Assembly: GCA_049999805.1 (NCBI GenBank)
Contig: JBNGIO010006236.1
Span: 264,558 to 328,100, forward strand
Reading direction: 5' to 3'
Length of the DNA stretch: 63,543 nucleotides
Source: Folioceros fuciformis
Lineage: Eukaryota
The position numbers and the translations under genes are program-made. Positions 33,301 to 62,953 of this stretch are shown here, piece after piece; within the stretch, counting starts at the first letter, position 1, and every line of letters starts with the position of its first letter. The notes beneath the pieces are model-generated. The model had not been told where the DNA came from and made no database searches. It worked only from the letters and a program-made list of their open reading frames with translations.

Positions 33301-35501
33301 AGGTAGTCTGCAACTCTGACGAAGTTGATTAGCCTGGTTTGTTCAGACCTCTTGGCAGCAGCAATCAAGTACGCAAATGTCTCCTGATTCTCTTTTGCCT
33401 CAAGTGCCCTTTCTTTATCCCTCTTCCATTTGGCAGCAACACTCGCCATTTTCATGCCATCATTGTCTTTGTGGATGGACTGAGCAATTAGCTCAACCTT
33501 GGGAGAACCACTGGACATGGCATCCTTTTGGTTCTGGCCCATAATCTCCTGTTCCAGCAAAGCAAGGTCTCTTATACAAGCTTCCCTCATTGCTGCAACA
33601 GATCCAGTCGTCAGCTGCAATGTAAACAAAAGGCCACCTTTTATCATCGAAGGTCAGCACAAGATTGCATGTACCAAACCAGTGTCGTAATGTGCAGTCT
33701 GATAAAAGGAGGAGAACAAGAACCTGAAGAAGCTGTGAGACGCACTCCTCCCTTTTGGCATCTTGCGCCTCAAGGAACTTTTCCAGCGTGTATATGACCC
33801 CCACTTCAAGCTTGAGAAATCGCAGCACTAACAAATTTTCACAAATCTGAACACAAATTAAGAGAGTCCTTCTGAACACTGAAGACCCGAAAGACGAAAT
33901 GCAAGCACAGCATATTTTGCATACTTCATCCTGATCTAACACATTCTGCTCTCCGTGGCTTCAGAGGAAAATGAGGGGAAGATGATGGAATACCCCTCGA
34001 ATCTGCAGAAGGACCTTCTGGAAGACGGGATTAAGGGTGAAAAGCAGCTTCTGCAGAGACTTGCTTGCTATTATCTTTTTCTTCCTTCTTACAAAATGCT
34101 TCCAAACGGCAAACGACTTCCATTTCTTGTACTGCAGGTACAAGCCGAGAGAGGTCAATAAGCTCTGGAATAAAGGAGGGTGGGCTGACAACCGTCAACC
34201 TCTAGCTTCCTAGAGCAGCCAACCGTGTGGGAGGGGGAAGACAGGGCGCAACGGTGGGCACCTGAAAGAAAACGTTGAGCTTGATTATGCACTTGTAGAA
34301 ATGATAATCACTCTCCCACTGATCTAAAGTCACGAACTCTGCATGCCGAAAATATTTCTTTCAACACCACTGCCGCTGCTGCTGCTTCTAGTGCTGCTGC
34401 CTGAGGTTTGAGTAAAAGACTTCTAACCTGCATCATTGTCGCGAAACAACGTGACACCTACAGCGCTCATGGTGTAGAAAAACGGACTGTCCAGCTCGCT
34501 ATGCAGCACAATATCAAGGTCGTAAGGGTCGAATTGCGGAGACTTGGTCTTTGCAGGTTGCAGGTATATGAAGTCCCTATTTTCAGGGTTTTGCCTCAGA
34601 TGGTCTGGTATCCCCAAGCGTTAACGCAACAAACCTGAATCCGTGGCAGGGCAAACCTTGCAAGCATCATACACATTCTGCAACAGCAAGCTACACTGCG
34701 TAACAATTCTCTTCCCCAGGATACACATAAACTCCATCCAGGTGTAACGCCTGTCCTTCTCCCCCAGCCCGGGCTTATCGAACTTGCTGGTCCTCCAGGC
34801 CATGAGCGGGTGACTCCCCTTGACCACGTGCTCCTTACTAGGCGAGCAGGTCCTGGCATGCGACACCCTCACCCGGAGCGGGGTACCAGCCCGCTTCTCC
34901 CCGACGCTGGGCCCAGCCTTGGCTGCATCCACAGCGGCAGCAGGAGGCGCCTCTGCCGCGGGTGCAACAGACGTGGACGCCCCGGCTGCGACAGGAGCCC
35001 GCCTGAGGGCCATCGGAGAGCTCCCGGGCGTGGCGGGCACGGTGACCCCGATCTCCGGCGGGACCGGTCTCGTCTGCCCCACCTTCTGGAAGATGGCATT
35101 GTTCTGCCGCGACACCCCGGGCGTGTCCAACACAAAGCTGTGGCTCCTCAGCCGCTCCCCCGTCGCCGACCTGGTGGGCAGGCCCCCGCCCGTCACACTC
35201 GCCTTGCGGAAGCTCAGTGACGTCTTCCGCACCACGCTGCAAAGAAGGCTCCCATCAGTGCCCTGGAAAAGCAACGGGCCCGTACATCGCGCACGCAATC
35301 CAGGGAGATGTAGTGCCTTGTGGAGCGCGAGGTGCGGCGGGAGGTCGCCTTGGGCGCCGCGTCCTCCTCCGCCGGCGCCCACAGTCGGATTCTCTTCCCT
35401 CCCCCGCCGTGCTGCTGCTGCGAGAGAAAGAGGCGGTTCTTGAAGCTGTGCGCCGGGGACGGTGAGGCGGGCAGGCTGATGTCCATGGCGCTGGGATCCA
35501 T
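18340..35501 (-). CDS. DNAH6: Axonemal inner-arm dynein heavy chain, DNAH6-like, with many short introns (roughly 40); 5' exon structure uncertain
   Basis: AAA1 GPAGTGKT and [12 protein letters not shown]2 [11 protein letters not shown]3 [11 protein letters not shown]4 GVGGSGKQ, stalk/[30 protein letters not shown], and C-terminus [18 protein letters not shown]...LLCQL. The N-terminal FVTLDQW..WK.F.VWK..VR segment is typical of this clade. Subfamily assignment is by recalled motifs, not phylogeny. Confidence 0.9.
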
Positions 35502-35961
35502 GCCGGCCGAAACCCAACCCAGAACCAGAAGCGATCACGCCACGGCCTGTGCGCCAGCTTCTGCGTCCTGGCAGTTGAATCCTCGTCCATGCATTCCTCG
35601 TCCCGCTTTCCCACACCCCGGACACATCATCTCCATAATATACCTGCCTCCATAACATTAGGTTCCTACTTAAATCCTTCATTAATTATCTATCTCTAGC
35701 CTTAGATCTGTATACCTCCGTTGATACGTGTATTGTAATATTTACATATTTTATTGGATAAAAGATGGAAGATTTATCTACCCTAGAAATGGGGGAGGAA
35801 CAACCAAAGCCCTCCATAGGCCAAAAGGGACTAGCCCCTCAAGATATCATTCCCATAGCTACCTATCCCTCCCATATTGGGGATGCTAAATTAAGAAGGG
35901 TTTGCCCACCTACTACTTATGTTGATGAAAGCACTAGACCCACCCTTGTTCTACAAAATTG

Positions 35962-37159: not shown

Positions 37160-38196
37160 TCAATGAGCAGAAACATGATAGTTTACAACGAACCCGTTGT
37201 AAAACACCTATTATAAATGTACCTCCATATTTATTTATATTTATATAATATAATATAATATATATAATTCATATATATATATATTTAAAAATATAATTTC
37301 CTTTACAATTGGGATGTTGTAAAAGGTTTTGTAAAATAGGTTGTTGTAAAGTGCATCATAATTATATTGAGACGTCTTAAACGAAGGGTTGTTGTAAATG
37401 GTATTGAGACGTCGTAAAACATCTGTTATAAATGTACATCCATATCTATTTAGACTTATATGAATTATATATAATTCATATATATCTATTTAAAACTATT
37501 ATTTCCTTTACATTGGGATGTTGTAAAAGGTTTTGTAAAATAGGATGTTGTAAAGTGCATCATAATTATATTGAGACATCTTAAACGAAGGGTTGTTGTA
37601 AATGGTGTTGAGACGTCTTAAACGAAGAGTTGTTGTAAATGGTTTTGTGAAATAGGTTGTTGTAAAGTGCGTCGTAAAATAGATTATTGTAAAGTGCATT
37701 GTAATTACATTGAGACGTCTCAAACTAAGGGCTATTGTAAATGGTTTTGTAAAATAGATTGTTGTAAAGTGCATAATAATTACATTGAGACATCTCAAAC
37801 TAAGGGTTGTTGAAAATAATTTTTCAAAATAGGTAACATGGCAAGAATTGCTGACTAGGTATGAGAGCCACATTGTTCATTTGTATGGGAGCCACATCAT
37901 CAAATGATCGATGTGAGACTTCTTAGGTATGGGAACCATATCATCAAATTATGCCATGGTATCATATGGTGATGTGGCAAGAAAATTCCTCGTGTTAACA
38001 ACATGTTGCATTATAGTTTGCTGATATGACGATGATGTAGTGCCTCGTCACCACTTTGTTGATGTGGTGCCACATCAGCAATTTTACAGTGCTATGAAGC
38101 TCTCGATTTACAATAGTGCAATTTGAAAAATTTAAAACGAGCTATTATAGAATACGTTGTAAAAACCATTGTAAAAAGGCTAATTTTCTTGTAGTG
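37160..38196. mobile_element. Non-autonomous CACTA (En/Spm) remnant
   Basis: Right end TTTTCTTGTAGTG (38184-38196) is the reverse complement of the CACTACAAGAAAA TIR. Interior is full of gttgtaaa/tttacaac subterminal-type repeats and a ~205 bp duplication. Left TIR degraded; no TSD seen. Confidence 0.65.
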
Positions 38197-38199
38197 AAA

Positions 38200-39300
38200 C
38201 TTTGGTTATTGCATAATCCTCTATTGGTCAACGTTCAAGGTTTACAATGACATGCTCATAGATGAAATTCCCATTTGGATCCGCAAGGATCACATTAGTG
38301 ATATAAGTTTGTTTCCCTTTAGAGAAAAATAGATCCACTCCAAGGAACGCCCCATATGCAGTGACCTCTACGAACACTGCATAGTGCATATAGGCACTCT
38401 TTATTTGGAAGAAACCCACACTTCCTTTCCATTAAGAACATGATCTCGTGAACAATATAATGTGTCACAATGCATTTCCTCCCTTGATGGGATAACATGC
38501 CAAATGCAACCCCGAGTCATTAATAGCAACCCCATAACTACATGTAAAGACAAATGAAGTTAAAAGATAGATCAAGCGTAGGTGGAATCTCATCACGGTC
38601 ATGAAAGTTGCTTTTGTGATTCGAAACATCTAAATGCATGATTGAGCCAAGAGCCAACTTTCTTTCCTGAACAAAAGTGAATATAAGCCTAAGAAGACCC
38701 ATGGATGGATGTTTCCAAGATATACACTCTAAGGGCTTGCGCATGCTACATAACTGAAGCTACCAAGATCTATGATGTTCTAAGGGTCTATATAATTAGA
38801 CTATCAAAATTCCTAAGATTTGCTAGGAAAGTTGGAGAAGGAATAATAGTCTCGACAAAGCAACCTAATTGCCACACAAAGTAAGAAGAGAAAGTATCAA
38901 ATGCAATATTTATCTTTAGTTTAAGAGAAGCCCTAAATATAGGCCAATTCTCCTTCAAAGGCTGCATTCTAAACCCTTTTGACAAAATTAGGAGGTCTAA
39001 CGAGAACGCCCAAGACCCATAATCTATATGAGAAAGCAATACCCCTTTCCCCTACATGCCTCTCTCATGTCTTTCCGCTTTTCCCCGACTCCCTCCAAAT
39101 ATTGAAGCGAGTGGAAGATGCTTAAGGAGGATCAAACTCTATAGTTAGCCAACTTGACCCTTAGTCCTACACAAGCAAGCTCGAAGGAGAAGAGATTGAA
39201 GGATGCCTTCACCATATCCCTCGGTTCGAGAATATGAGTGTCATTGGCCATGGATGGGAACAAAACATTTGTGTCGTGGTGTGCCGCTAAACATTGCACT
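38200..39300 (-). mobile_element. 3' part of a degenerate RLE-type (CRE/NeSL-like) non-LTR retrotransposon
   Basis: Minus-strand peptides in order: VLFPSMANDTHILEP (decayed xADD RT motif, ~39225-39270), TIIPSPTFLANLRNFD, CSYGVAINDSGLHLAC...VTHYIVHE (decayed zinc knuckle) and VDLFFSKGKQTYITNVILADP (restriction-like endonuclease motif). Confidence 0.7.
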
Positions 39301-39630
39301 CATGTATGATTCATTAGTTAAAAATACTCACACCACACCACATTACACACACATTAATTACTGCATGATGGTGTTGTAGCTTTATAAGAGTGAAGCGTTT
39401 GCTTCCTTCAGTCACCACAAAATCTCCTCCACCTGCATCCACACTTTTCAGAGTTGTAACTTGGCTTCTCAAATCCTTGATCGGGTCACATGATCTTGCA
39501 CGCTGCGCACACGCACACCTTAACCGAATTTCCAACAAAAGAATGCTCCCTCAAGAGAAAGCTTATTCCCATAAAGCAAGAGAATATAAGCTTACAACTG
39601 CAGTGAACACCACTGAGCTAGGCTTTTTTA

Positions 39631-39815
39631 TGTTATTTTATGCATTTGTTCAAGGATAATTTAGACAAAGAATACTTAAGACAATGCAGCAAAAGAACTT
39701 AATTCAATTAATACAAAATTGTAGCTTTTATAGTGTCAAGTTTGTTAAACCCAAAAGTCACGTGTTTAATCGAGTTAGGTTAATCTAACCCATGGTTACC
39801 TAAATAACCTTAATA
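39631..39815 (-). repeat. 3' LTR of copia element 1
   Basis: Differs from 46163-46346 by about 5 transitions and 1 indel; one terminus is mutated (TA instead of CA on +). Confidence 0.95.
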
Positions 39816-39886
39816 CCCCCTTTTAACCTTACGAGGTTAAAGTAAGTGCTTAAACCCTAACGGGCCATGGCCCTCGTCACTCCCTC

Positions 39887-40472
39887 ATGATGAAGCAGTC
39901 ATGCGAAGTTGTTGTGTGGCACAAGCGGGAAAATCATGCAGGGAGCATGACGGACGATCCAACTTCAGACAGGGAGAGACGTGAAGGCTCAGGGCAAGCT
40001 GAAGATTGGTCGTGGCGCCTTGCTCTCGCGGTACCAGGGATAAGAACAACCATTGCAGAGGGAATTCTCAGTCTTCTGTGTTCTGGTGCAGGAAGAAATG
40101 GCACGCAAGAGGGGTGGCGGCTTGAGTTGTCAGAAGCATCCAAGGGAAGAGTCCTCACAGCAGCATAGTTACTCTGTTGAGCCTGGCGAGACTCACACAT
40201 CGAAGGAGCCTGCGGAGTGGCCTACACAGTCAGACAGAAACTTGGTGTGCCATCTGCTTCAAACTTCTCAGAAGTGCGAGGAGATTGAAGAAGCAATCAA
40301 GGCCGCGAAGTGTAGGGTCTTGAAGCTTCGAGACTTGGTCGCCAAGTTCCCACAACGGGATTCGACCATGTTTCCACTGTTAGAGTGTGAAATACAACAC
40401 CTTGTGAAGGAATTGAACACGCTGGGATATACTGGAGCAGTGGGCGGTGTGCGTGAACCTGATGATACCTAA
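39887..40472 (+). CDS. Hypothetical antisense ORF inside copia element 1 (possibly spliced 39887-40030 + 40092-40472, 174 aa); coiled-coil-like C-terminal half
   Basis: In-frame GT..AG intron at 40031-40091 with a pyrimidine-rich acceptor (tcttctgtgttctggtgcag). Helical segment LLQTSQKCEEIEEAIKAAKCRVLKLRDL...LECEIQHLVKELNTL. Telo-box-like AAACCCTAA and GGGCC at 39852-39866. Confidence 0.45.
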
Positions 40473-40668
40473 GTCCCTTGTTTGCCTGAGAGAGGTAAAT
40501 CACTGCTGTGAAGTTTTTCTTTGCTTTTCGTTGATGTAGAAAATAGTTCACGACTGAATATGCAGGTTGCTTCATCCATTGAGCTGTCCTCATGGCTTGT
40601 GTGCTGGACAGGAAGGTCAGGCCTATAGTAAATTGCTTAATTCACTTCGTGTCAATAGAACACACACA

Positions 40669-43600
40669 CTATTCTGTACTCTCTCGTACCGGCATAGCAA
40701 ACACCCTTAAGCCCATAGAGGCTAGATGTTTATAGTGCTTGACCTTAGAAAGTCCTTTTGTCAGTAGGTCTGCTGTATTTTCATATGTGCTTACATATTC
40801 CACCTTAGCCACACCTCTCTCCACCACGTCCCTAATGTAGTGGTGATAGAGCTCTATGTGCTTTATCCTCACATGGAACCGTGGATTAGCCACGAGGGCT
40901 ATAGCAGACATATTATCACATAGTAGTTGAGTTGTAGAGGTTTGTGTCATAAAGATGGATTCTAAAAACTGTCTTTTCCCATTCAAGTTCCTTGCAGGCA
41001 TTTGTTAGGGCCTTGTATTCAGCCTCAGTAGACGACAGGGCTAATGAAGACTGCTTTTTACATGACCAATTGACAGCACCAGAAGCTAGCAAACATACAT
41101 AGGCAGACAGACTCTTACGAGTGTTTGAATCTGATGCCCAGTCAGCATCAACTAGGGTAGTCAGCATAAAGCTCTTCTTGCCACTGGCAGTATAATGTAG
41201 GCCTAAATTGACTTTTCCCTTTAGGTAACGATAGATACGTTTGACTGCAGCCCAATGGACTCGACCTAGAGTCTTGAAAAACTGAGCTACCATACTAATA
41301 GAGAAGCTTATATCTGGTCTAGTCCAGTTTGCCAGGAAAATGAGACAACCAACTGCCTCAGCATAAGGAATGCCAGCCATATCCTTTTCTTCATCGGGAG
41401 AATGAGGGGACACGTCGACTGATAGCTTCTCACCCACAACAGAAGGGGTAGTTACAGGACGTGCTTCATCTAGGTGAAATCTTTTAAGTATTTCCTTAAG
41501 GTACTTTGATTGATGAAGGACAATTGTCTCGTCTTGCCTGTTTCTAAGTATCTGGATACCCAAGCAAAACTAAAGAGCACCATCGTCTGTCATCTCAAAT
41601 TTGCTCCTCAGAAGATCCTTAACCTTGTTCATGTGTGACATGCTGTTGCTCAATAGAGTCGCATCGTCAACATACAAAGCCAGGATGACAAAAAGCTTAG
41701 ACTCAGATAAGTAAAACACATTTGAGTCTGCTGATGATTGTGAGAAGCCTGCCTTACACAGGGACTTCATAATTCGTTTGTACCAGGCTCTGGGGCTTTG
41801 TTTCAAACCATAGATAGTCTTCAAAAGTTTACAGACTTTACCGGGCCATTTCTTACTAACAAATCCTTCTGGTTGGTTCATGTAGAGAACCTCTTCCAGT
41901 TCTCCATGTAGGAAGGCCGTGAGGACATCCATCTGATGGAGTTCAAGATCAAACTCAGCGGCAAGTGCAAGTAGGATCCTAACAGATGGAGGCTTCACTA
42001 CAGGGGAGAAGGTATCTCCGTAATCTATCCCAGAAATCTGTGAGAACCCTCTTGCCGCCAGTTTGCTCTTATATCTTGCTATAGTTCCATCTGACTTTAG
42101 TTTAGTTTTAAAAAACCCATTTACAGGTAATAGGTTTTCTGCCTGGTGGTAGATCAGCTAGCTCCCACGTCTGGTTTTTGAGGAGACTATTGTACTCATC
42201 ATTCATAGACACTTGCCAATGGGCCCCATCAGGACCATTCAGTGCTTCATCAAGTGTTCGAGGATCAGGTCTGACATCAGGTACATACAAGTCTGTTACA
42301 TTGGCTGCAGTATGTCTCATGAAATCTTCAGACTGATAAGGTGGCTCATCCCATAACTCTCGTGGTCTTCTCATCCTTACAGGAAAGTGAGAAGAAGGAT
42401 CAACATCAGCAGTCTCATCAGGATCTGACAATACACCATCACTATGAGCTTCACTGATATCCAAGTCTTCAAAAACCACCTGGCTGCTCATCATTATATT
42501 GGTGATCCCCCTCATAATCCTCAGCATCTATAGGATCTGGATATACAGGAGGTGTACCAACAGTAGGTACCAAAGGCGGGTCAGGCTAATCATTTTGTGG
42601 TTGTAAGAAAGCATCAACTGCTACATGGTCTAATAGAGTAGGAACATCTCCATCTGACTGTGGGTATTCTTTGTGTGGACTCTGTATCAGCAAGTCTACT
42701 CTCAAGAGTGGTAGACAAGGAATCTGTTTGAGGAATTAAAAATTCCTTGAAGGTAACACTACGTGCTAGTGTAATCTTGAAAGTCTTAGGGTCATACAGC
42801 TTATAGGCTTTGGATTCCAACAAAGATGGAGGGTCGAGACCTATCATCTAACTTCCCCCTCTTGGCTTCAGGGACGAAAGCAAAGGCGGGTGACCTAAAG
42901 ACTCTCAAGTGCAGCAGGCTAGGCTTGCGACCCCAGAAAGCTTCATAAGGGGTGCGACTAGGCAGAGCTGAAGTAACAAGTCGATTCAGAATGTAAGTGG
43001 CTGTCACCACAGCTTCTGCCCAGAATGATTTGGGTAAGTAAGCCCATGAGATCATGCTGCGAGTCATGCCCATCAAAGTTTGATTTTTGCGCTCAACAAC
43101 ACCGTTATGTTGTTGTATATAGGGCACTAACAACTGGCGAAGAATACCATATGCTTGAAAAAGATCATGAAATCGATGGCCAATGAACTGCCCTCCATTA
43201 TCAGTTCGGAAGCATCTGACAAGACGTCCAGTCTGTCTCTGGACCATGAGGATCCAGGAGGAGATGTGTTCGAACACATTACTCTTCAACTTGATAGGGA
43301 AGGTCCAAGTATAACGAGAAAAATTGTCAGTCAGTGATAGATAGTACTCTGCTCCACCAAGAGACTTCACAGGCAGCTTTCCAGCAATATCAGCGTGCAC
43401 AAGTTCAAGGACAACAGTTGCCCTGGTAGGTTGTTTATTCTTGAAAGGCAATTCTTTTTGTTTAGACAGTATGCAGGAGGTGCAGGCCAATAGATGCTTG
43501 AAACAGCTGGGGAGCTTCTCTCTGTAGACGGTGGAGTCGACATAAAATCCAACTTCGACTTGTTCACATGGCCCAACCTCTCATGCCACAGGTTAGCCTT

Positions 43601-45008
43601 GTCATTGGACGAAGCAAGAAGGACTCTGGTGCGTGACTTAGACACCTGGACCAGTTGATAAAGATCGTGTACTAAGACAGCCTTAGTTAGAATCTTCTTT
43701 GGACAGGTAAGGGGATACATGTAGCACGTACTACTTTCAAAACGAAAACCATATAGGTTCATTCTAGAAATGGCTCTAACAGACAATAAGTTTCTACTCA
43801 TTACTGGTACAAACAGGACTTCCTGAAGGGTTGAGCCATCAAGAAGTGGTATGTCTACTATACCTGTCCCTTTTACCTCAATGCCCCGTGCATCACCCAC
43901 AAAGAATGACTAAGGGGTTTGTAGGTTGTGAAAGGAAGAAAACATCTATTGATTGTTGCAGACGTGAGCAGTTGCTCCCGAATCAACGAACCAATGCTGA
44001 GTGTTCTCTGTAGTCAAAATCAAACAAACTGTAAGTACAGGGCTGCTGTTTTGAGGTTGTTGTTGGCCATTCTGAGATTTTGCTTCCTTAGATGAAACAT
44101 GAGCCTGTGATCTAACAATCTTTTTGGGCTCTCCAGCTTTCTTCTTTCTACAGTCACGTTCCCAAGTATCTGGCACCAGTTGCAACTGCCTGTGCGCTTA
44201 GTGGTGGAGGAGGAGGTACTAGAAGTGTTTGAAGAATTCTTCTTACTTTTGTCCTTTCCCTTCCATTGATTCTTGCCTTTTTCAGCAAGAAGGACTTTTT
44301 CACAATGCAGCCTTGAACCAGAGTGAGAACGTTGGCGGCTCTGCTCCTCTTGCAGGAGGGCCCCAACTATCTCATTCAGATTGAGTGTAGAAGGTTGGCC
44401 ACTTGCTGCTGCTGAGTAGGAATCACGCAAAGTGGCATTTTGGCTGGAAATAAAAGATTAATAGGATGAGGGCAGGCTGGTCAGCAGTTGTGCTGTCATC
44501 ACCACTTCAATAATCTTGGTACCTAGCGCAGCAAGCTATGCTCGCAGTGCCTCAACTTGGTGACATGAGCACCAACTGGTTCCCCCTCCCTCAACCTCAA
44601 ACTGTGAAAGTCGTTTCTTGCGTTGATCATGGTACATATGTTTCTGACCTAATAAGTGTCATGAAGTTGTTTCCACACAGCTTCTGCTGACTCAAGTGAA
44701 TCAACCTCAGTAACTGTAGTCTCATCAAAGCCTGACAGAAGAATGGCAAATGCAACCTTGTTACACTTCTTCCACTTTGCCTTATCATCAGATGTGGGCT
44801 GAACTACAGCTGTAGCTGGTACAAGGAAAGGGTTCGGTATAGTGCCATCAACATACTCCAGAACGTCGCGAGCATCAAGGTTAGCTTTTATTTGTGTTTT
44901 CCAGCTTTCAAAACGTAGTGCCTTTCCATCGAACCTATCTTTTTCCTTAAACTCACTGTAGTATGACAATCCTACAGATATAGACATGGGTCCTTGACCT
45001 GTAGTCAT
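40669..45008 (-). pseudogene. Copia gag-pol of element 1, disrupted by frameshifts and stops
   Basis: gag FKEKDRFDG..FESWK, zinc knuckle CNWC..(GH)WERDC, protease WFVDSGATAH, LWHERLGH, integrase LVHADIAG/RTDNGG/NGVVERKN, RT QMDVLTAFLHG/YGLKQSPRAW/LYVDD, RNase H DADWA/SSTEAEY/KHIELYHH/ADLLTK. Confidence 0.95.
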
Positions 45009-45442
45009 GGTGACACCAGCAGAGAGTGGAGGAGTTGAAGGATTTGAGAAAAGCTAGGAGAGTTGATCAGTATCACTATCAGAGTCAGTATCTGCAACAA
45101 ACAGGGACATGCTCTACTGAATGTTGAGAAAACATGTAGACGACATAAGAGAATTGAAACGGTAAGTCCTAAAACTTAAATGTCCCTTCAAGTTTTTTTT
45201 TTTTTTTAAAGATAATAACATTTCAACAAACCCTAAGCATGTCACACGACTTCTAACTGATAACCGTTTGTGCCTGCAGACATTCTCAGAATGCAAGGGA
45301 CGTGACCCAAGCATAAATCAGGAAGACAACAAGGACATCTACAACACCTGGACACTCCAACCAACAGGAGCAATCATAGTAGTGCCTACTGAGAGCTCCA
45401 GGGCAACGAATTGTAAATTCGCAAGCTGTCTCTCACACCCCT

Positions 45443-46012
45443 TCAGATCTGAGGGGTCTTGTCTGTCTGATCCTCAGCGCATGCTCCATCTCTCATGGGA
45501 ACAAGAGATTCCAGGTACATCGCTGCAACTGGTTGCACTGCAGAGGTAGAAACATGTGTTTGTTGAACTCTGAATTGAGTAAGTTGAGAAACAAGTTCCG
45601 CAACTTCGGATTGCAGGGACTCCAGACTTCTGATCACTTCACCGAGTCTTGGAATTGTGAAGGCAAAAGTATGGTCAGCAAGCAATTCGATACTGTTCAA
45701 CTTGAGGATGAGACGGTCAGTTGAATAAGGACTTGCTGTAGAATCCAGTTGCTCAAGTAGTACTCCATCTTCAAGAACTTCTCCTAACCAATTTTCTTGT
45801 TCAATCCTTGATTTCAGAAGCTCAATCCGCCTGGAAACTACTCGACTGGAGTAGCTGTGGGGAGAGACAGAAAATTCTCTCACCCTGTCCTTCTTCCTGG
45901 CATCTGCGAGCAGATCATTGAGTAGTCTACTAATGTAATCTGCCCTAGCAGCCCAAGGAGATGAAGAGATAGGCTGTATACGCCTACCACTCCTTCTAGG
46001 CATTTTAAGCAT
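45443..46012 (-). CDS. Extra ORF (ORF0, 189 aa) between PBS and gag of copia element 1; basic N-terminus and coiled-coil
   Basis: Open frame starting ~140 bp downstream of the PBS: MLKMPRRSGRR...RLGEVIRSLESLQSEVAELVSQLTQFRVQQ. No gag/pol motif. Confidence 0.5.
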   Translation of the reverse strand: MLKMPRRSGRRIQPISSSPWAARADYISRLLNDLLADARKKDRVREFSVSPHSYSSRVVSRRIELLKSRIEQENWLGEVLEDGVLLEQLDSTASPYSTDRLILKLNSIELLADHTFAFTIPRLGEVIRSLESLQSEVAELVSQLTQFRVQQTHVSTSAVQPVAAMYLESLVPMRDGACAEDQTDKTPQI

Positions 46013-46150
46013 AGGAATAAGAGTCTAATGTGCCTAGCATTTAAGATTGCTAGGACACCAGAGTAGACACACTAGACTCGACATATTTGACAATCACATT
46101 GCAAAAAGCATATGTAGAAGTAGTATAGCGGAAGACTCAGAGCATCGAGA

Positions 46151-46162
46151 GCTCTGATACCA
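46151..46162 (-). promoter_or_regulatory. Primer-binding site (tRNA-iMet) of copia element 1
   Basis: TGGTATCAGAGC on the - strand, immediately after the 5' LTR. Confidence 0.95.
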
Positions 46163-46346
46163 TGTTATTTTATGCATTTGTTCAAGGATAATTTAGACAA
46201 AGAATACTTGAGACAATGCAGCAAAAGAACTTAATTCAATTAATACAAAATTATAGCTTTTATAGTGTCAAGTTTGTTAAACCCAAAGTCACGTGTTTAA
46301 CCAAGTTAGGTTAATCTAACCCATGGTTACCTAAATAACCTTAACA
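46163..46346 (-). repeat. 5' LTR of copia element 1
   Basis: TG...CA termini; internal CTATAAAAG on the - strand. Confidence 0.95.
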
Positions 46347-46559
46347 TTATGCCTACTACTTGAGACTTGTTGCACCCACATCCACACATCTAGTTGCATT
46401 TAGATTAGATTAGATTATATTATATGTTCTAATAATCTTCATTAAATAGTTGTTAATTATTACTAATGTCATTCATTAGCATCAATTATTGACTAATTAC
46501 TATTTGCATGTATCTAAGAGTGACAGTACACAATTATGCTTGACATTTCTGAAACACTC

Positions 46560-50130: not shown

Positions 50131-53100
50131 ATGTTGACCAAATTCGAGACCAAGAGCAACCGAGTGAAGGGGCTGAGCTTCCACCCCCGGCGGCCCTGGA
50201 TCTTGGCCAGCTTGCATAGCGGGGTCATCCAGCTATGGGACTATCGGATGGGCACGCTCATCGATCGCTTCGACGAGCATGACGGCCCTGTGCGTGGCGT
50301 GCACTTCCACAAGTCGCAGCCGCTTTTCGTCTCTGGAGGTACTGGCTTCTGCGCAGCTGCATTATGGTGTGCCGGATCTGGTTGGATCTGGGGCTTGTGG
50401 TTGTGGTGCGGGTGCAGAGGAGCCTGGGTCTTGAGTAGTTGCTTTTGGTGAGCAGGGGAGTGGATCTCTTGCAGCTCGTGCTGCTGGGCTTGATGTCATG
50501 TTTGTGGCTTGGGATGGGCTTGTTGTCACCGGGTCTTACACCGTGGGCTTTGGAACAGGGGATGACTACAAGATCAAGGTGTGGAACTACAAGATGCGCC
50601 GCTGCCTCTTCACGCTGCTGGGCCACCTGGATTACATCCGAACTGTGCAGTTTCACCAGGAGTACCCTTGGATTGTGAGCGCTAGTGATGACCAGACTAT
50701 CCGAATATGGAATTGGCAGTCTCGGACATGCATATCTGTGCTCACGGGGCACAATCATTACGTCATGTGTGCTTCCTTTCACATCAAGGAGGATTTGGTG
50801 GTGTCTGCATCCTTGGACCAGACTGTGCGAGTGTGGGATATCGGTGCTCTCCGCAAGAAGACCGTGGCTCCTGCGGAGGACATTTTGAGGCTGAGTCAGA
50901 TGAATACGGATCTCTTCGGTGGGGGAGATGCCGTGGTGAAGTATGTTCTGGAGGGGCATGATCGAGGTGTCAACTGGGCTGCGTTTCATCCCACCTTGCC
51001 TTTGATTGTGTCGGGAGCTGATGATCGACAGGTGAAGTTGTGGCGGATGAATGGTACGTGTCCTAATGGTACTCTTTGCGTGACGGGTTTTTCGTTTCTT
51101 GTGTCCTACTCTAACAAACAAACTGCCCCACACCTTACTTGTGATCTGCAGATAAAACGGCTTGGGAGGTGGACACACTTCGTGGCCATGTCAACAATGT
51201 CTCTTCCGTGATTTTCCATGCTCGTCAGGATATCATCGTTTCCAATTCAGAAGACAAGTCGATCAGAGTGTGGGACATGAGTAAGCGCATCGGGGTGCAG
51301 ACTTTCAGGCGGGAACATGACAGATTCTGGATACTTGCAGCGCATCCAGATATGAATCTGCTTGCGGCAGGGCATGATAGTGGCATGATAGTGTTTAAAC
51401 TGGAAAGGGAGCGGCCATCGTATGCGGTCCATGGAGGCATTCTCTATTATGTTAAGGAGCGCTATCTGAGGACCTATGAATTTGCAACCGGAAAGGATAA
51501 CCCGCTCATTTCCATCCGGAGAGCTGGTTCAGCCGGGATGAATCAGGGCCCTAGATCTCTCTCCTACAATCCAGCAGAGAATGCAGTTCTAATATGTTCT
51601 GATGTGGAAGGTGGCTCATATGAGCTTTACATTATTCCTAAAGAAGCCTCTGGAAAGAGCGAGTCAGTAGAGCCGAAGCGAGGTGCCGGAGCATCTGCGG
51701 TGTTTGTCGCTCGCAACCGCTTTGCAGTCTTAGATAAGAACCAGAACCAGGTGTCTATCAAAAACTTGAGAAACGAGGTGACAAAGAGGGTGGCTCTGCC
51801 TTTTGCAACAACAGATGCTGTTTTCTATGCGGGCACAGGGAATCTGCTCTGCAGATCTGAGGACAAGGTGTTCTTGTTTGATGTTCAGCAGAGAAACACC
51901 TTGGGAGAGCTGAGCACCCCCTTCGTGAAGTATGTTGTCTGGTCCTCTGACATGGAGTTTGTTGCTTTGATCAGCAAGCATGCAATTATTATTGCAACCA
52001 AGAAGCTAGTCAATCAGTGCACTGTGCACGAGACCATCCGCATTAAGAGTGGTGCTTGGGATGAAAATGGTGTGTTCATGTACACAACTCTCAATCATAT
52101 CAAGTACTGCCTGCCGAATGGTGATAGTGGTATAATCAGGACATTGGATGTTCCTGTCTACATCACCAAAGTTTCTGGAAGCGCTGTTCACTGTTTGGAC
52201 CGTGATGGGAAGAGCCGGACCATACAGATTGATCCCACGGAGTACATGTTCAAACTCTCTCTCATTCAAAGGAAGTATGATCAGGTTCTGTCCATGATTA
52301 GAAACTCGCAGCTGTGTGGGCAATCCATCATTGCATACCTCCAGCAGAAGGGATTTCCTGAGGTAGCCTTGCACTTTGTCAAGGATGAGAGGACTCGGTT
52401 CAATCTCGCAGTGGAGTGTGGGAACATAGAGGTGGCAGTTGCATCTGCCAAAGAGATAGATGAGAAAGACTACTGGTCGAGGCTGGGGGCAGAGGCGCTG
52501 CGTCAAGGAAATCACGAAATTGTTGAGTACTCCTTGCAGAAGACGAAGAACTTTGAACGCCTGTCGTTCTTGTATCTCATAACTGGAAACTTAGAGAAGC
52601 TTTCAAAGATGCTCAAGATCGCAGAGATGCGCAATGATGTGATGGGCGCTTTTCACAATGCACTGTATCTGGGTGACGTCAAAGAAAGAATCAAAATATT
52701 GGAGGAGTCTGGGCATATACCTCTTGCATATGCAACTGCTACTGTCCACGGGCTGACTGACATAGCTGAGCGGCTGGCTGCTGATCTTGGTGACAATGTA
52801 CCAACTCTTCCCCCGAAAGAGAAGGCGGCCTTGCTCTTGCCACCAATTCCAATTTTGCGAGAGGACAACTGGCCATTATTATCAGTTAGCAAAGGCTTCT
52901 TTGAAGGTGCTTTTGGAGATGCGGCTGCGGGAGCGGAACTGGAGGACGAAGTTGCTGCAGCAGGGGCTTGGGGTGAGGAGCTGGATATTCCTGACGTGGT
53001 TGACGTCAGAGCAAATGGTGAGATTTTCGCAACTGAAGACGAAGAGAAGGGTGGAGAGGATGAGGAGGCAGGTTGGGAGATGGAAGACTTGGAACTTCCT

Positions 53101-54102
53101 GCAGATGTGAGCACAAACGATGTTGTTGGAGGAGGTGCTGAAGCAGCTTACTTTGTTGTGCCTACGCCTGGTGTGCCAGTCAGCCAGATCTGGATCCAAA
53201 GGTCTTCACTTGCTGGTGAACATGTGGCAGCGGGTGCCTTTGACACGGCCATGCGCTTGCTCAATAGGCAGCTTGGGATCCGTAATTTCGCTCCCCTCAA
53301 GGCAGCTTTTTTGGATCTGCATCTTGCATCCCACACATCTCTACCAGGCCTTGTTTCGTTGCCAGTATTGCCGCTGGCCCTTGAGAAGGGATGGACTGAA
53401 AATGCAAGTCCAAATGTCAGGAGTGCACCAGCCCTCATCTGGAAGCTCTCCACGTTGGAAGAGAAGTTGAAAGCAGGTTACAAGGTGGTCACAGAGGGCA
53501 AGTTCACGGAGGCCTTGAGATTGTTCCTCACCATTTTGCACACTATTCCCCTGCTGGTTGTGGACAGCAGGAAGGAAGTGGATGAGGTAAAAGAACTGGT
53601 GTCATTAGCGAAGGACTATGTCCTTGCCATGAGGATTGAGCTGAGGCGGAAGGAACTGAAAGATGACATGGTCCGACAGTCAGAGCTTGCCGCATACTTC
53701 ACTCACTGCAACCTCCAGCCAACGCATCTGAGACTGAGCTTGCAGTCTGCCATGAACACCAACTTCAAGGCCAAGAACTTCAATGCAACGGCTTCCTTCT
53801 GCCAGCGGTTATTGCAATTGAATATTCCTCCAGCAACAGCGACCAAGGTACGGCAAGCATTACAGGCTTGTGAGAGGTCTCCCAGAGACGAGCTTCCCAT
53901 CAACTATGATCCCCGAAATCCATTTGTGGTCTGCGGTGCCACTTTGACGCCTATATACCGTGGAAGCAGAGATGTGTCTTGCCCGTACTGCACAGCTAAA
54001 TTTGTGCCAGAAACAAGTGGGCAGATCTGTCCTATTTGTGAGCTTGCTACTGTTGGAGCAGATGCATCAGGACTATATTGCTCTAGCACTCAATCCCGGT
54101 AG
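50131..54102 (+). CDS. COPA: Coatomer subunit alpha (alpha-COP); exons 50131-50338, 50559-51053, 51152-54102
   Basis: [21 protein letters not shown]40 repeats, [11 protein letters not shown] and [12 protein letters not shown] restored across GT-AG introns, C-terminal NPFVVCGAT...CPYC...CPIC. Confidence 0.96.
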
Positions 54103-56397: not shown

Positions 56398-59300
56398 TGT
56401 GAACTTTCCTAAAGTGTAGAGAAGGGCGGAAGTGTAAATTAGAAAAGATTGAGAGAGTACATAAGTAGGGGCCCTTTTATAGGGCCCAGGGCACCCCTAC
56501 CTCGGCCCCCTTCGTAGGGGTGCGACTGTTCACTTGACGAGTTAGGTTAGCCTGACTCACGTGACTGGTAGCTAGGGTTATGTAAACCTTACTAAACTTA
56601 ACACTCCCTCTTAAGGGGGACATGACCTAGGCTAAGGGCTCCCTCGATCGAGCGAACATCTTCTGGTCTTCAGGTCTTGGAGAGGTACGGGGTGAAGTCA
56701 ATCAGGCCCATGCTCTCCAATGTGCTGGTAGTGCCGGGTCTTGGGCAGGCCCTTCGTCAGGATGTCTGCCAAGTTGTCCTCTGTTGGTACATAGCTGGTA
56801 TCTACCACCTTGCGCTCGACTACATCCCGGATGTAGTGATGTTGGATCTCTATGTGTTTCGTCCTAGCGTGGAACTTGGGGTTGGAGATCAGGGCCAGAG
56901 CCGACGTGTTGTCGCAGTAGAGTGTCATCGGCTGGACCTGCTTCTGGCCAACGTCGGCTAAGAGGGCTCGCTCCCACTCAGCTTCCTTGGAGGCATCTGT
57001 GAGTGACTTGTACTCAGCCTCTGTAGAAGAGAGCGCTATGGAGGTCTACTTCGTGCAGCTCCAGTTCACCGCAGCAGAGGATAACAGGAAACAGTGGGCG
57101 CTCAAGCTCTTCCTTGAATCTGGGTTAGATGCCCAGTCTGCATCTGTATAGCCACTGAGGAGGAGCTTGCCGGTCCCTCCGTTCTGGTACATCAATCCAT
57201 AGGTCAAGGTGCCCTTTAGATAGCGAAATATTCTCTTGACCGCAGCCCAATGCGCCTTGCTAGGATTCTCAAGGAACTGAGACATTGTGGAGACGGAGTA
57301 GTGGATGTCGGGCCTCGTCCAGCCGCTGGCAAAGAGGAGACTCCCTACGGCATGGCGATAGGGGATCCCATGCATGTCCTTGGTCTCTTCTTCAGTCTGA
57401 GGACACTGCTTAGTAGCGAGTTTTGTGCCCACGGCATAGGGGGTGGTAACAGGCCTGGCTTGGTCCAGCTTGAATTTCCTCAGTATCTCATTGACATGCT
57501 TGTACTGATGGATGATCAGCTTTCTTTCAACTCTATTCCTCAAAATCTGAATTCCGAGGCAGAATTGGAGCTCGCCAACATCTTTCATCTCAAAATGGGA
57601 GCAAAATGCGGCCCTCGAGTCAGCATGTAGACGTTCTCGTCGGCTGCGCTCTGGATAAAGGAGATGCTGAGTAGGTAGGTGTGTATAGTAGTATACCACA
57701 CTCGCTCGCTTTGCTTGAGGCCATAGATGCATTTCCTTAGCCTGAGCACCTTGTTGGGGAACTCCTTGCTGACGTAGCCTTCTGGCTGGTCCCTGTAGAG
57801 CTCTTCGTCCAAGGTACCATAGAGGTAGGCAGTCTTGACGTCCATTTGGTGGAGCTCCAGGTCCAATTCAGCCGCAAGGGCAAGCAAGATCCGTATGGAT
57901 TGCGCACGTACCACCGGGGAGAAGGTCTCTTGATAGTCCAGGCCTTCGACTTGGGAGAATCCGCGGGCCACTAGCCGGGCCTTGAAGCGGTCCACCTGTC
58001 CTTGGGCGTTGAGCTTAAGCTTGAACGTCCACTTGCAGGAGATGGGCTTCCTTCCAGGGGGCAGGTCGACGAGTTCCCAGGTCTTGTTTTGAAGTAGACT
58101 CTGGTACTCATCATCCACTGCGATCCGCCACTGCGAGGACTCAGGTCCTACAAGGGCTTGGGAAAGAGTGGTCAGTTCTTCTGGAAGGGCCGCTGGAGAT
58201 AAAGCCGCCGACAGTGAGTTGAAGGCGGTCCTGAAGTCGGTGGATTGGTAAGGCGGCTTTGCCCACTGAGATGGTGGTGGTCGATGCCGAGTACTGCGAC
58301 GAGGCCAGGGTTGGGTGCCGGAGCAGCCGGCACAGGCTCGCCATGAGCCAACACGGGCTCCGTAGGAGGCAGCTCCTCTGGGGCAGCCGATGACAGGTCA
58401 TGGCCAAGGTCGTCAGCGGCATCGTTAGCAGGAGGTTGAACAGCGGGGGGAGTACCATTAGGGTCTTCAAGAGGCAAGCCGGGGTCAATATGCGCGTCGT
58501 CCCTAGGGACGGGGCCGTTGTCTGGAGTCTCCAAGTAGCTGGGGTCACCGTCTTCGACAGGGTAGTCGCAAGCGGTGTCGGTGTCGGCAGCCGCAAGGCT
58601 GCTGACCGGCACGTCTCCCTCTGAAGCTGGCTTGGCTGGCTCCAGAAAGGTGACAATGTGTGCCAGGATGATGTCGTGGGTCCCAGGGTCAAAAAGCTTG
58701 TAGGCCTGAGAGCTCTCGCTATAGCCCACAAAGATAAGCTTCTTTGCCCTGTCATCCAATTTGCGTCGCTTCTTGGCAGGGATGTGAGCAAAGGCTGGCA
58801 ATCCGAATACCCGTAGATGCTGAATGCTGGGCTTGCGCTGCCAATATACCTCGTAGGGGGTACAGCCAAGAACTGAGTTTGTGATCACTCGGTTTAAGAT
58901 GTAGGTGGCCGCCACAATTGTCTCTGCCCAGAAGCCTTGTGGAAGTCCGGACCATAGCAGCATGCTCCTGGTCATGGACAAGAGTGTCTGATTCTTGCGC
59001 TCCGCGACTCCATTCTGCTGTGGAGTGTAGGGTACCGTGAGTTGTCTTTGAATTCCTTGCTCCAGGAGGAAGGCATCAAACTCATGGTTGACAAACTCTG
59101 TGCCGTTGTCGCTCCGCAAGGTCTTCAACTGCTGACCAGTCTGCCGCTGTAGAGGGTCAGGACGTTGTTGACGTTGTAAGTGTTGGCCAGCTGGTCCCAG
59201 ATGGCAGCAACTGTCGTGAGGAACTCCACACTGGGCACCAGGCTGGAGGCGAGTCCGCCGATGAGAAGAGCGATGGCGATCCCGTTGAGATAATCCCAGC

Positions 59301-60561
59301 GCTCCACGTCAGCGATCGGCCCAGTGGCCGCAGGCTTGGGGAGGCTGCCGTCCACCACTTTCCAGACGCCTTTGCCAACCAAGAGGGACTTCATGCGGAC
59401 ACGCCAGACTGGGTAATGTAGTCCGTTGAAGCGGTCTTGCTCCTTTATCTGCTCAGTAAACATGGGAATGGTGGCGGGTACTGGGGCTGAAGAGCTACTG
59501 CTTGCCATTGCGAACGTTGTGTTCAAGGAGAGTGAATTCAGTTGCTGGATGATCTGGTCCAAAAAAGAGTTAGCGCTTGTGGTCATAAAAACCAAGCTTC
59601 GGAGTGAAGGGCTGGTCACTGTCTTAGGACACATATACAAAGGGGTAGCACGGTCCCGAGAGTTCAAGCAGACATTCTCAAGTTCGGTGCGCAAGCAGCT
59701 GGAGGAGTGCCGGAGTTTGGCTGCGTGAGCCGCCGAAGGCGAAAGATGAGGTCCACAAGCTGGTCGGTAGTCCGCTCCAGCTGACCCCACAGTTCCTGGG
59801 TCAGGTACACTGAATCTGTCGGTGATGGCGTTGCCGGAGGTTAGTCTTCATGTAGCACTCGGGGTTGGGCACTGGTTGTAAGTCCTCTATCGCTGTAGGC
59901 AGGTAATAAATGGGCTGTGGAGGGGAGAAGAAAACGGGAGGGGGGCATGGGCAATTATTAAGATAATGAAAATGAGGCCCAGGAGGAGGTTCAAATAAAC
60001 CCCCGAACAAGTGTGGGGGAGCAGAGACGAACGGGCGTGCCCGTCCGGGCACGGGTGCCCCCGGTTGCGGATCTGCGCGCCCGTTGAGTGCTCCGGGTCG
60101 TTATCCGCGCCTCCCGCGAGCCCAACTCGCACGCCTTCTGCAAGCCTAGCGCCTGCCCCCGCGGCGACATGTATCTCATCGATGCCCGCGTGAAGCCCGC
60201 ACGCGACCATGCTGAGCCCGCCCGTGCCCGGATACGGACTGCCTGCGTCCGCTGAGAGCACGCCTGACTGCGCGCCTCCAGCAGGTACGTTGCCTACGCT
60301 AACTGCCTAGCCTGCGCCTGCTGGGAGCCCACCTGTACACGCGCCTCCCGCGATCACCGATCCTGCAGGGGTGGGTGTATGCACGCCCAGCACGATTTGG
60401 GCGCCCGTGCCTGTTGATTTCTCCAGGCTTGCACCTGCTGGGTTCTCCGAGTCCGCAACTGAGCCTTCCACTAGCATGGAGCCAAATCTTGGTGTGGCGC
60501 CCATGGGAATCTGGGTGCCCGGTCCTGAGTAGTGGCCTGCACCCAAACCAAGTTATGATGG
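56398..60561 (-). mobile_element. Ty1/copia element 2: internally deleted; 3' LTR ~56398-56603; 5' LTR not in the window
   Basis: gag IKEQDRFNGLHYPVWRVRMKSLL, integrase KTLRSDNGTEF/YTPQQNGVAERKN, RT KARLVARGFSQ/QMDVKTAYL/YGLKQS, RNase H DADWA/KHIEIQHH/ADILTK. PPT aagagggag before tgttaag. The left LTR boundary is tentative. Confidence 0.88.
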
Positions 60562-61244
60562 TGTTCGCTTATCCCTTAAATAGGACATAAAATTAGGGTT
60601 AGACATATATTTATTTTAGGGCTCCGATGACGGTTAATTGTTAGTAACTGTCGTGTCATGTGAACTACATGTGAACGTGGTTTCACAACTTACTTCTTCA
60701 CTTTTGCTTTCTCGCTTGCATATGCTTCTAGTGCGCTTGTGCGCCTAATGCGATCTACTTGCTGTTCATAAACGACATGGTATCAGAGCCCGGCATTGGA
60801 GATATCCACAGAGCCATCTGCTTAGGAGCACCTTCTTTGTCCAGGCGACAGAGAGCACGTGGATATGTCCAATATCCTGGATAAACAGCCAATGTAAAAT
60901 GGACTCTCTAGCAGCCAAGTGTGGCTGGTTGCTGTACCTTTCAAAGTTTGTAGGACCGAAGCTCGAGCCGCTGATCTACAAGCTGGTCGATCAGACAGCC
61001 AGTCGTGCGGAGGCTCGGGAGAGGCGCAAAAGCCTGAAATTGCGCAAGAAGGTTGTTAAAATTCAGATGCGTCGATCTAGGAACAGCTAGAGAGGTCGGC
61101 TCTTGAGAATACCTTTCTAAGAGCTGCGGGTGCTGCCGGTAGAGCGGCGTGGAGGCGCACATTTTGCTTGCAAGTTGAGAAGCTGGTGGTGCGCAGCGAG
61201 AATGGTCCAAGATCTCACAAAGGGAAACCGGCCTGATCCTTTGG

Positions 61245-61778
61245 ATGGCGCACTGTCATCGCGGTCACAGAGGGAATCAGAGAAGAGTCATCCAGCCAGT
61301 ACCTCCCTACGAAATCACAAACCTGCCTATTGAGAGAGGCAAACAGCCAAATAGACGTGTCCATAGAGATAGGATCCCGAATCTAGCCACCGCGAATCCA
61401 AGCATCCATCAGTATCGAAGGTCTGTGCAGCGACGCCACCAAGACCCAGAATCCTTGCACCCTGAGTCAGCCACCAGAGATAGTGAGGAGTCTCTTGCCG
61501 TCGCTGTACAGCACCTAACACAAAGGCTTGACAATATCAACAGCACTGCACTTTGCCGTACCCAGCTCATCCTCACTACACTTGATAGCCTTACAGATCG
61601 GATAACTCGGTTTGAGGATCACCTGCAGCAAATAGACGTCAAGCTATTTGTTTTAATGAAACCACAGCTGCAGGAGAGGAATAGGCTTACCCGAACGATT
61701 CTCTCAAATTACAGACGAGCAAAGTTAGCTGTGTGCCAATCCAGGCCAGTGGAGTCTACCAATGCGGGTAGCTGTTGA
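61245..61778 (+). CDS. Extra coiled-coil ORF upstream of gag in copia element 3 (5' part probably broken; fragment at 60899-61090)
   Basis: SLAVAVQHLTQRLDNINS...LDSLTDRITRFEDHLQQIDVKL heptad pattern, located between PBS and gag. Confidence 0.45.
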   Translation: MAHCHRGHRGNQRRVIQPVPPYEITNLPIERGKQPNRRVHRDRIPNLATANPSIHQYRRSVQRRHQDPESLHPESATRDSEESLAVAVQHLTQRLDNINSTALCRTQLILTTLDSLTDRITRFEDHLQQIDVKLFVLMKPQLQERNRLTRTILSNYRRAKLAVCQSRPVESTNAGSC

Positions 61779-62853
61779 TTCATGAGTGGACAAGGGACAT
61801 ACTCCACTCCAGAGTGGCAGAGGAACTAAGCCCAAGAAGTCGGGCTTATCGATTTTGATGACTATGAGGAAGAAGTTGCAGATGGTGACTCTGGACGAGC
61901 ATCTGTAAACACAAATCTGGAACACGTAGATTATTCCTAGTTCTGGAAAGCCAACAAAATGGATGAGGATGATAAAGCACGAGATAACATGATTAATGCA
62001 CTACAGACATTGACCAGCGGTGGATTCAAGGAAAAGGACCGACTGGTCATAGGTGCTGAGTACGATATCTGGGTCATGAGGATGCAAGGCGCATTAGAGG
62101 AGAAAAATCTGTGGGATATCGTGACTGGTGATGTACCAAAACCTGCAGAGGGGTCAGCAAACTTACTTGTTTGGAAGCTGGCTGACATAAGAGCAAGGAA
62201 CCTGATCAAGTCAGGTCTTGCCCCAGAGATGATGCGTTCAGGCATCTGATGGACCAGGTGACTCAGCGTAGGACATGTGGAACCACCTTGCTATGATGTT
62301 TGCCTCCCATGACATGGCGGCGTCTATGTCTGCTTCTGTGAAATACCATAGCCTGCGAATGATAGAAGGGGAGACAGTTGAACATTACATTGCAAGATTT
62401 AGAATTGCCCGTGCAAGACTAAGCTCATCAGGAACGAAGATTACAAACTACGAAGCAGCCTGTAGACTGTTGAGTTCCTTACCACCAAGTTACGGCCCTT
62501 TCGTCACTGGTCAACAGGCCACGGCGAAAGTGGAGGCCAGAATTGCCAAGGTCTTGAAACTTGATGCAGAGCCGCTAACATTCAACGGAGTGGTTAGTGC
62601 GATGCTGCAGGAAGAAGCTACACGGCTGTCTTCACACTCTGCAAAACAGCAATCACAGGGTCAGCAAGCCCTTTTTGCAGGTAGGGGAAAAACATTCAAG
62701 AGAGGCCAAGGTGGCTGGAGTGCTAACCGTGGTGGTAGGACTGCTCCCAGTGGACCTGGTCAGAGTTCAGGCAGCCAGAAAAGGAGTGGCAACTGCAACT
62801 GGTGTGGTATACCAGGTCACTGGGCACGGGATTGTCGTAAAAGAAAGGCCGGC

Positions 62854-62953
62854 NNNNNNNNNNNNNNNNNNNNNNNNNNNNNNNNNNNNNNNNNNNNNNN
62901 NNNNNNNNNNNNNNNNNNNNNNNNNNNNNNNNNNNNNNNNNNNNNNNNNNNNN
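62854..62953. other. Assembly gap (100 N) within gag of element 3
   Basis: N run. Confidence 0.98.

Follow-up and report, generated by a model that had tools for sequence, protein, structure and literature searches.

Between its pol gene and its polypurine tract (PPT), a copia-type LTR retrotransposon on the minus strand carries a segment that is open to translation in the opposite direction. The question raised by this locus is whether the segment holds a small gene that belongs to the element, a piece of host DNA that travels with it as cargo, or open frames that arose by chance in a non-coding region. An initial annotation had proposed an antisense, apparently spliced gene, cargo or accessory in nature, with promoter motifs beside the 3′ LTR and a protein product of 174 amino acids with a helical C terminus. 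Here, we analyze the segment within its window, by which we mean the whole stretch of 63,543 nucleotides under study and to which all positions refer.

The element that houses the segment is a Ty1/copia LTR retrotransposon with a length of 6.7 kb. Its two LTRs, identified by alignment and by reading their ends, stand in direct orientation with the internal region between them, the 3′ LTR at 39631–39815 and the 5′ LTR at 46163–46346 (both minus strand), and 182 nucleotides of the former are 97.25% identical to 46164–46344. The 3′ LTR is of the TG..CA type, the terminal CA reading TA in this copy. The PPT (AAAAGGGGG, 39817–39825, minus strand) directly abuts the 3′ LTR, and the primer binding site (PBS; TGGTATCAGAGC, 46151–46162, minus strand) adjoins the 5′ LTR and has a sequence that we take to match the 3′ end of the plant initiator tRNA-Met. 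According to the available text of PMC6317226, tRNA-Met primes most plant copia groups. The gag-pol region (40669–45008, minus strand) is a polyprotein broken into at least eight ORF pieces, with the pol stop at 40669. Pfam places Retrotran_gag_2 at 44649–45008, gag_pre-integrs/Pol_BBD at 43367–43900, rve with SH3_retrovirus at 42801–43490, and RVT_2 at 41570–41998 (E = 2e-38), all on the minus strand, and the order of domains reads gag, pre-integrase/beta-barrel, integrase, reverse transcriptase (RVT_2), and RNase H region. With the integrase upstream of the reverse transcriptase on this strand, the element has the copia order.

On the 5′ side, between the PBS and gag, lies a further ORF encoding 189 amino acids (“ORF0”, 45443–46012, minus strand), which is separated from the gag ORF by about 435 nt. 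ORF0 is weakly coding-like (0.05 on the codon score described below), and a Pfam scan assigned it to no family. Additional sequence is thus found on the 5′ side of the element too, amounting to ~1.1 kb.

Sister copies of the element and of its surroundings were observed as Logan contigs at 80% likeness, drawn from three DNA runs of one sample (X1, X2, and X3). The element sits inside another repeat (39300–39627 and from 46347 onward) that is far commoner in these runs, its summed depth being 400–1330 versus 60–400 over the copia. Sister copies of this flanking repeat cross the insertion point, their loose ends at 39627 continuing as ATGCCTGCTACT..., like window positions 46349–46360, which confirms the left boundary of the element; the empty insertion site is read through by 13–16 contigs. 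The flanks TTTTA and TTATG agree in three of five letters and form an imperfect candidate target site duplication.

Two further copia elements are present in the window. The second (~56665–59800, minus strand) has a pol that is 65–70% identical to that of the first, and neither detectable LTRs nor a similar spacer were found in it; the third (60778–63543, plus strand) shares the PBS word, found at 60778, and is truncated by the end of the window and a run of N. The genes around these elements mark the host as a spore-bearing land plant whose sperm are flagellate. Among them are a PLS-type PPR gene with an E motif and an axonemal dynein heavy chain gene whose best matches are to lycophyte (79%), fern (76%), and liverwort (74%) proteins. 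Three housekeeping genes, coding for a DEAD-box helicase (581 amino acids), a beta-adaptin (927 amino acids), and coatomer alpha (at least 977 amino acids), occur as single long exons at 5470–7215, 7575–10358, and 51169–54102, and beside them the dynein gene is divided by many short introns of 80–185 nt. A dispersed or tandem repeat family, with four copies of ~111 nt spaced 75–204 nt apart, occupies 37308–37836. At 34600–35700, a GC-rich region contains numerous overlapping open frames in the two orientations (ORFs of 119–353 amino acids), all with strongly negative codon scores; it therefore resembles non-coding DNA of high GC content more than it does a gene.

Coding signal of the antisense open frame

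The spacer from the pol stop to the PPT spans 39826–40668 and measures 843 nt, in agreement with the ~850 bp first given for it, and the location of the segment between pol and the PPT of a Ty1/copia element is confirmed, as is its antisense orientation. On the plus strand, positions 40092–40472 comprise 126 codons and a stop, within a stretch that is open from 40044. The best model of the antisense ORF runs from the ATG at 40098, in the context GAAATGG, to a TAA ending at 40472 and encodes 124 amino acids; with a purine at −3 and a G at +4, this start codon lies in a strong context. Six upstream ATGs between 39867 and 39947 precede it, which would hinder translation unless transcription started downstream of them or splicing removed them. 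An upstream extension of the ORF frame was rejected, given four stops between 39868 and 40043. A consensus-like donor, GAG/GTAAAT, is found at 40492–40501 (plus strand), 24 nt past the stop codon of the antisense ORF, and would be relevant only if an antisense transcript were spliced further into the sequence antisense to pol.

To score coding potential, we used a codon model trained on the six Pfam-confirmed host genes of the window, a training set of only ~4300 codons from this one window, and expressed the score as a log-likelihood ratio against each sequence’s own base composition, in bits per codon. The antisense ORF (40092–40469, plus strand) scores 0.109, and the full open stretch (40044–40469, plus strand) 0.13. 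For comparison, host windows of 126 codons score 0.092 ± 0.076 (n = 172), the element’s own pol pieces 0.015 ± 0.062 (n = 8), and wrong-frame or antisense open stretches inside host genes −0.094 ± 0.11 (n = 32). Two minus-strand (sense) ORFs of the spacer, at 40297–40593 and 39934–40200, were rejected as coding, with scores of −0.11 and −0.12. The synonymous-codon part of the antisense ORF score is 0.094, at the upper end of the values for host genes (−0.025 to 0.102) and higher than in any of the eight pol pieces (maximum 0.037), and GC by codon position is 0.58/0.41/0.54 versus 0.50–0.60/0.35–0.44/0.44–0.58 in host genes. By the standard of host codon usage, the second ORF (40044–40469) looks like real coding sequence.

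This signal has to be weighed against the possibility that the segment belongs to the element as non-coding DNA, such as a region beside the PPT with a regulatory or structural role, and that its plus-strand ORFs are chance open frames. Length alone is in keeping with that explanation, as the longest open stretch, of 142 codons, is matched by 5.2% of 2000 shuffles of the spacer and is hence not beyond chance. Long spurious ORFs do occur in the window, including one of 522 amino acids antisense to the adaptin gene. The codon score, however, places the ORF among true host exons, and it is reached by only one of the 32 spurious stretches inside host genes, by none of 1403 ORFs from 3000 spacer shuffles, and by none of 50 further real stretches open for 100 codons or more, among which a Pfam-confirmed dynein exon comes highest (0.106). 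The window has 200 stretches that stay open for 80 codons or more; ordered by codon score, the antisense ORF is seventh among them. Ahead of it are five pieces of host coding sequence and one false positive, a chance frame of 80 codons antisense to the adaptin gene. The signal is also specific to the frame, being positive in every 30-codon window along the ORF and in no minus-strand frame, and together with the strong start context this argues against chance. Taking these points with those from sister copies and homology searches given below, we regard a non-coding origin as possible, though less probable than a coding one. Host-like codon usage and the composition of the surrounding block, described in the next section, are the two features of the segment that exceed chance.

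Family copies, composition, and homologs

Across runs X1, X2, and X3, 715, 760, and 463 contigs align to 39300–42300. The spacer is covered throughout, with a summed depth in X1 of 58–170 versus 115–400 over pol. At position 40323, X1 contributes 11 distinct contigs and X2 contributes 9, all with G where the window has A; pol positions have 9–12. Among those listed, contigs that are 81–87% alike to the window span 39818–40126, 39910–40151, 40032–40270, and 40250–40561 without gaps, and two further contigs over 39839–40127 and 39930–40105 contain three to four gap letters. The segment is therefore present in sister copies, in about as many contig variants as pol and including variants that are 13–19% diverged. 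This shows that it dates far back in the family and is shared across it, unlike a capture confined to one copy. In at least one contig per run, a 1-nt deletion at 40111 falls inside the ORF (among the 12 of 23 indels and 40 of 929 differences listed), a frameshift that counts in favor of a chance ORF. A fourth run, X4, presumed to be RNA and comprising 49 million letters, matches the flanking repeat with a single contig and the element with none, and is uninformative on expression.

The segment is not uniform in composition. From 39826 to 40472, a block of ~650 bases has a GC content of 0.51–0.52, a CpG observed/expected ratio of 0.62–0.66, and a plus-strand purine fraction of 0.567, compared with 0.44, 0.34, and 0.498 for pol. 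The remainder of the spacer (40473–40668), in which sister contigs show a 5-nt insertion and a 2-nt deletion, is element-like, at 0.42, 0.34, and 0.474. Three host genes have a GC content of 0.49–0.50 and a CpG ratio of 0.51–0.62; in both measures, the block resembles host genes and departs from the remainder of the element. Its edges in composition are sharp, one at the PPT and the other near the stop of the antisense ORF, and since the block extends over this whole distance, the stretches initially annotated as exon 1 and intron belong to it as well. A search for tandem or inverted repeats that might explain the open frame or the block found none. Over 39300–42300, run X3 shows a large excess of C>T (171) and G>A (188) differences. 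This pattern suggests a library prepared by bisulfite or enzymatic conversion, from which the methylation of the block could be read.

This composition raises the alternative that the block is fossil host sequence of genic or cDNA origin, either a small gene or the end of one, that was taken up by an ancestor of the family and has been carried since as passive cargo with no role in the element. Its GC content, CpG ratio, GC by codon position, and synonymous codon usage all match host genes and differ from pol, and its edges are sharp; gene capture by LTR retrotransposons is, moreover, described in the available text of PMC7264820. However, the segment is about as widespread among diverged contig variants as pol itself, and the CpG content of the block has stayed high while that of pol decayed. 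No plant or other protein resembling it was found among 1.84 billion representatives, in collections that include lycophyte, fern, and liverwort proteomes, but a donor gene restricted to the host’s own lineage may still exist. We consider this origin unlikely. Were the block captured host DNA after all, it would represent long-term retention of cargo with gene-like CpG in a CpG-depleted element, which would point to locally different methylation.

The search for a captured host gene, proposed with the initial annotation, returned no similar protein from public collections. In the set of 1.84 billion representatives, HMMER gave a single match to the antisense ORF (E = 2e-4), to a translated tandem repeat, and no real homolog; a word-indexed search of 5.8 billion proteins at near lengths gave eight candidates, none of which scored, and no relative. 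A Pfam scan with E up to 0.1 produced only a chance match to PolC_DP2_cat (13 bits versus a cutoff of 24.3) and found no homology to Transposase_28 (PF04195) or SMC-like domains. In a metagenome scan, the antisense ORF had 236 pattern matches and no confirmed one, and a pol piece found four loci of at most 45% identity, too distant to use. Within the window itself, tblastn and blastn over the remaining sequence did not find a second copy of the ORF, and Rfam on 39400–46500 gave three sub-threshold matches, none of them within the spacer. ESM Atlas returned no feature match, and its recognition value for the ORF is low, at 1750, whereas 91 in 100 proteins of known families attain 2300.

In a single-sequence AlphaFold model of a 139-amino-acid version of the ORF, helices are placed at residues 59–98 and 107–123, with a pLDDT of ~58–75 there and 53.6 overall. 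The helical C terminus described initially thus reappears as two helices in the C-terminal half, but in a weak model. The lack of homologs and of a family, the low ESM recognition, and the weak fold are all in line with a chance ORF. These negative homology results are nevertheless weakened by the sampling of the databases, as the nearest relative of the element’s own pol in the protein collection, on a Logan contig of 2966 nt, is only 68% identical, which indicates that the family and its host are absent from them.

Splicing, promoter motifs, and gene model

Host introns against which splicing of the antisense segment can be judged were mapped in the dynein gene by aligning its closest protein relative to the window, which gave 12 introns of 80–185 nt, one of them verified by eye at a conserved junction of 10 residues. 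Donors of the AG/GT type occur in 9 of the 12; at the remaining three junctions the acceptors are poor too, and the mapping heuristic may have misplaced them. The initial two-exon model, in which 48 codons from an ATG (exon 1, 39887–40030, plus strand) join 40092–40472 in frame to encode 174 amino acids once a 61-nt GT..AG intron (40031–40091; GCG/GTACCA ... GGTGCAG/G) is removed, is sound in its arithmetic, has an acceptor (TTCTGTGTTCTGGTGCAG/G) that is host-like and an intron GC (0.48) and T content (0.26) within the host range, and would bring a long upstream ORF into frame instead of letting it block the main ATG, yet we hold it to be very improbable, as the join is one of 166 GT..AG pairs (40–400 nt) that leave the frame open from ATG 39887 to the same stop, exon 1 scores like non-coding DNA (−0.112 bits per codon, amino-acid part −0.125, with little power in 48 codons), the intron is shorter than all 12 host introns, and the donor lacks AG/GT. 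An alternative donor of the host’s commonest type, GAG/GTTAAA at 39835/39836, would together with the acceptor at 40091 remove all six upstream ATGs, so that ATG 40098 would become the first start codon, and splicing from this site appears at least as plausible as the 61-nt intron. As judged from the sequence, then, the splicing claim is unsupported, although an antisense transcript may still be spliced.

The promoter motifs reported beside the 3′ LTR are where they were said to be: the telo-box-like AAACCCTAA at 39852–39860 (plus strand) is followed by GGGCC at 39863–39867 and by its inverted copy GGCCC at 39871–39875. They do not, however, go beyond chance. The telo-box word AAACCCTA occurs three times in the window versus 1.71 expected, a count reached in 28 of 100 shuffles, and is hence not enriched, and the strict site-II motif TGGGCY is absent from 39816–40100. 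What stands of the initially proposed antisense coding gene is therefore its second ORF, with the codon usage of a host exon, and not its first exon, which resembles non-coding DNA, or its promoter motifs, which occur at chance level.

We favor, at a probability of about 0.4, the reading that the segment contains a small antisense ORF borne by the family, coding now or until recently and an analog of the extra antisense ORFs known from plant Ty3/gypsy elements. This reading starts from the position, orientation, family-wide presence, codon usage, and composition of the ORF as observed, and extends conditionally to its transcription, promoter, translation, and function. In the most economical gene model, the coding part would be unspliced, from ATG 40098 to TAA 40472, and the predicted product of 124 amino acids would be basic and probably disordered in its N-terminal half, with the C-terminal half forming a helical hairpin. 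Transcription would proceed toward pol from a putative antisense promoter at or near the edge of the PPT and the 3′ LTR. Because it is antisense to the genomic RNA, the gene would be copied with the element at each retrotransposition. Its product, or the antisense RNA itself, may modulate the element’s own expression, as we suggest by analogy with the Ty3/gypsy antisense extra ORFs and with the antisense genes of some retroviruses. A more specific version, in which the copia family of a non-seed land plant maintains an antisense gene for a small helical protein with host-like codons, a CpG-rich and probably unmethylated 5′ region, a promoter at the 3′ LTR edge, perhaps splicing from 39835 to 40091, and ATG 40098 as the first start, is doubtful as a whole.

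Comparison with known antisense and extra ORFs

In the splicing of the retroviral antisense gene HBZ, a short LTR-proximal first exon is joined to the coding exon. Retroviral antisense genes arise from the 3′ LTR, the available text of PMC7264820 giving HTLV-1 HBZ as an example. The copia ORF is likewise antisense and located beside the 3′ LTR, and the putative splice between 39835 and 40091 would mirror the LTR-proximal first exon. There is, however, no sequence relation between the two, the element is a plant retrotransposon and not a retrovirus, and promoter and splicing are putative here.

The transduction of gene fragments by LTR retrotransposons, as presented in the accessible part of PMC7264820, offers a second comparison, in that a host-gene-like composition is found inside an element. 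Captured fragments are described there as usually occurring in one or a few copies. The present segment differs in occurring in many diverged copies and in having no donor that could be found in public protein collections.

Among copia elements, the “env-like” ORFs of the SIRE lineage also represent an extra ORF between pol and the 3′ LTR (PMC6317226 and PMC4093653, in the text available). These are sense and longer, with 381–393 amino acids in bean families, whereas the ORF described here is antisense and has 124. The REXdb survey, by the account in the same portion of PMC6317226, took up only extra ORFs of at least 250 codons, a cutoff below which the antisense copia ORF falls. Full-text literature searches found no antisense extra ORF in a plant copia element, within the portions of the articles that were accessible, and the REXdb supplements (PMC6317226) may list reverse-oriented copia ORFs. 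The plant antisense ORFs behind pol that are documented in the available text of PMC7264820, PMC4093653, and PMC11963269 all belong to Ty3/gypsy.

It is these Ty3/gypsy ORFs, designated aORF-3R for their place between pol and the 3′ LTR, that come closest to the present case. They are known from maize Grande (gene23), rice RIRE2, Silene Retand, and Phaseolus pvRetro13, along with 14 further families (PMC7264820, PMC4093653, and PMC11963269, as far as their accessible text goes), and the part of PMC7264820 available to us characterizes Ty3/gypsy antisense ORFs as typically without database homologs. The copia ORF shares with them the same position, the antisense orientation, carriage by a family, and the lack of a database homolog. 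The two differ in their setting: the aORF-3R hosts, on the same partial sources, belong to the Tat/Retand group of Ty3/gypsy, with several kilobases between pol and the 3′ LTR and ORFs of 211–939 amino acids, whereas here a 6.7-kb Ty1/copia element has 843 nt and 124 amino acids. Many aORF-3R are described in those texts as encoding Transposase_28 (PF04195) or SMC-like domains, and the copia ORF is without such a domain. For Grande, the accessible text of PMC7264820 reports a promoter of its own upstream of the antisense ORF and a nuclear product; for the copia ORF, antisense transcription is putative.

Antisense extra ORFs behind pol are a recurring and functionally unexplained feature of plant Ty3/gypsy elements. 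The more specific version given above, if true, would be the first copia counterpart of these ORFs and a plant parallel to the retroviral antisense genes that act on their own element. A small, family-wide antisense ORF in a copia element of a lycophyte- or fern-grade plant would mean that both superfamilies give rise to genes of this kind and that some are so short that standard annotation misses them, and it would provide a compact case for testing whether the protein or the antisense RNA regulates retrotransposition.
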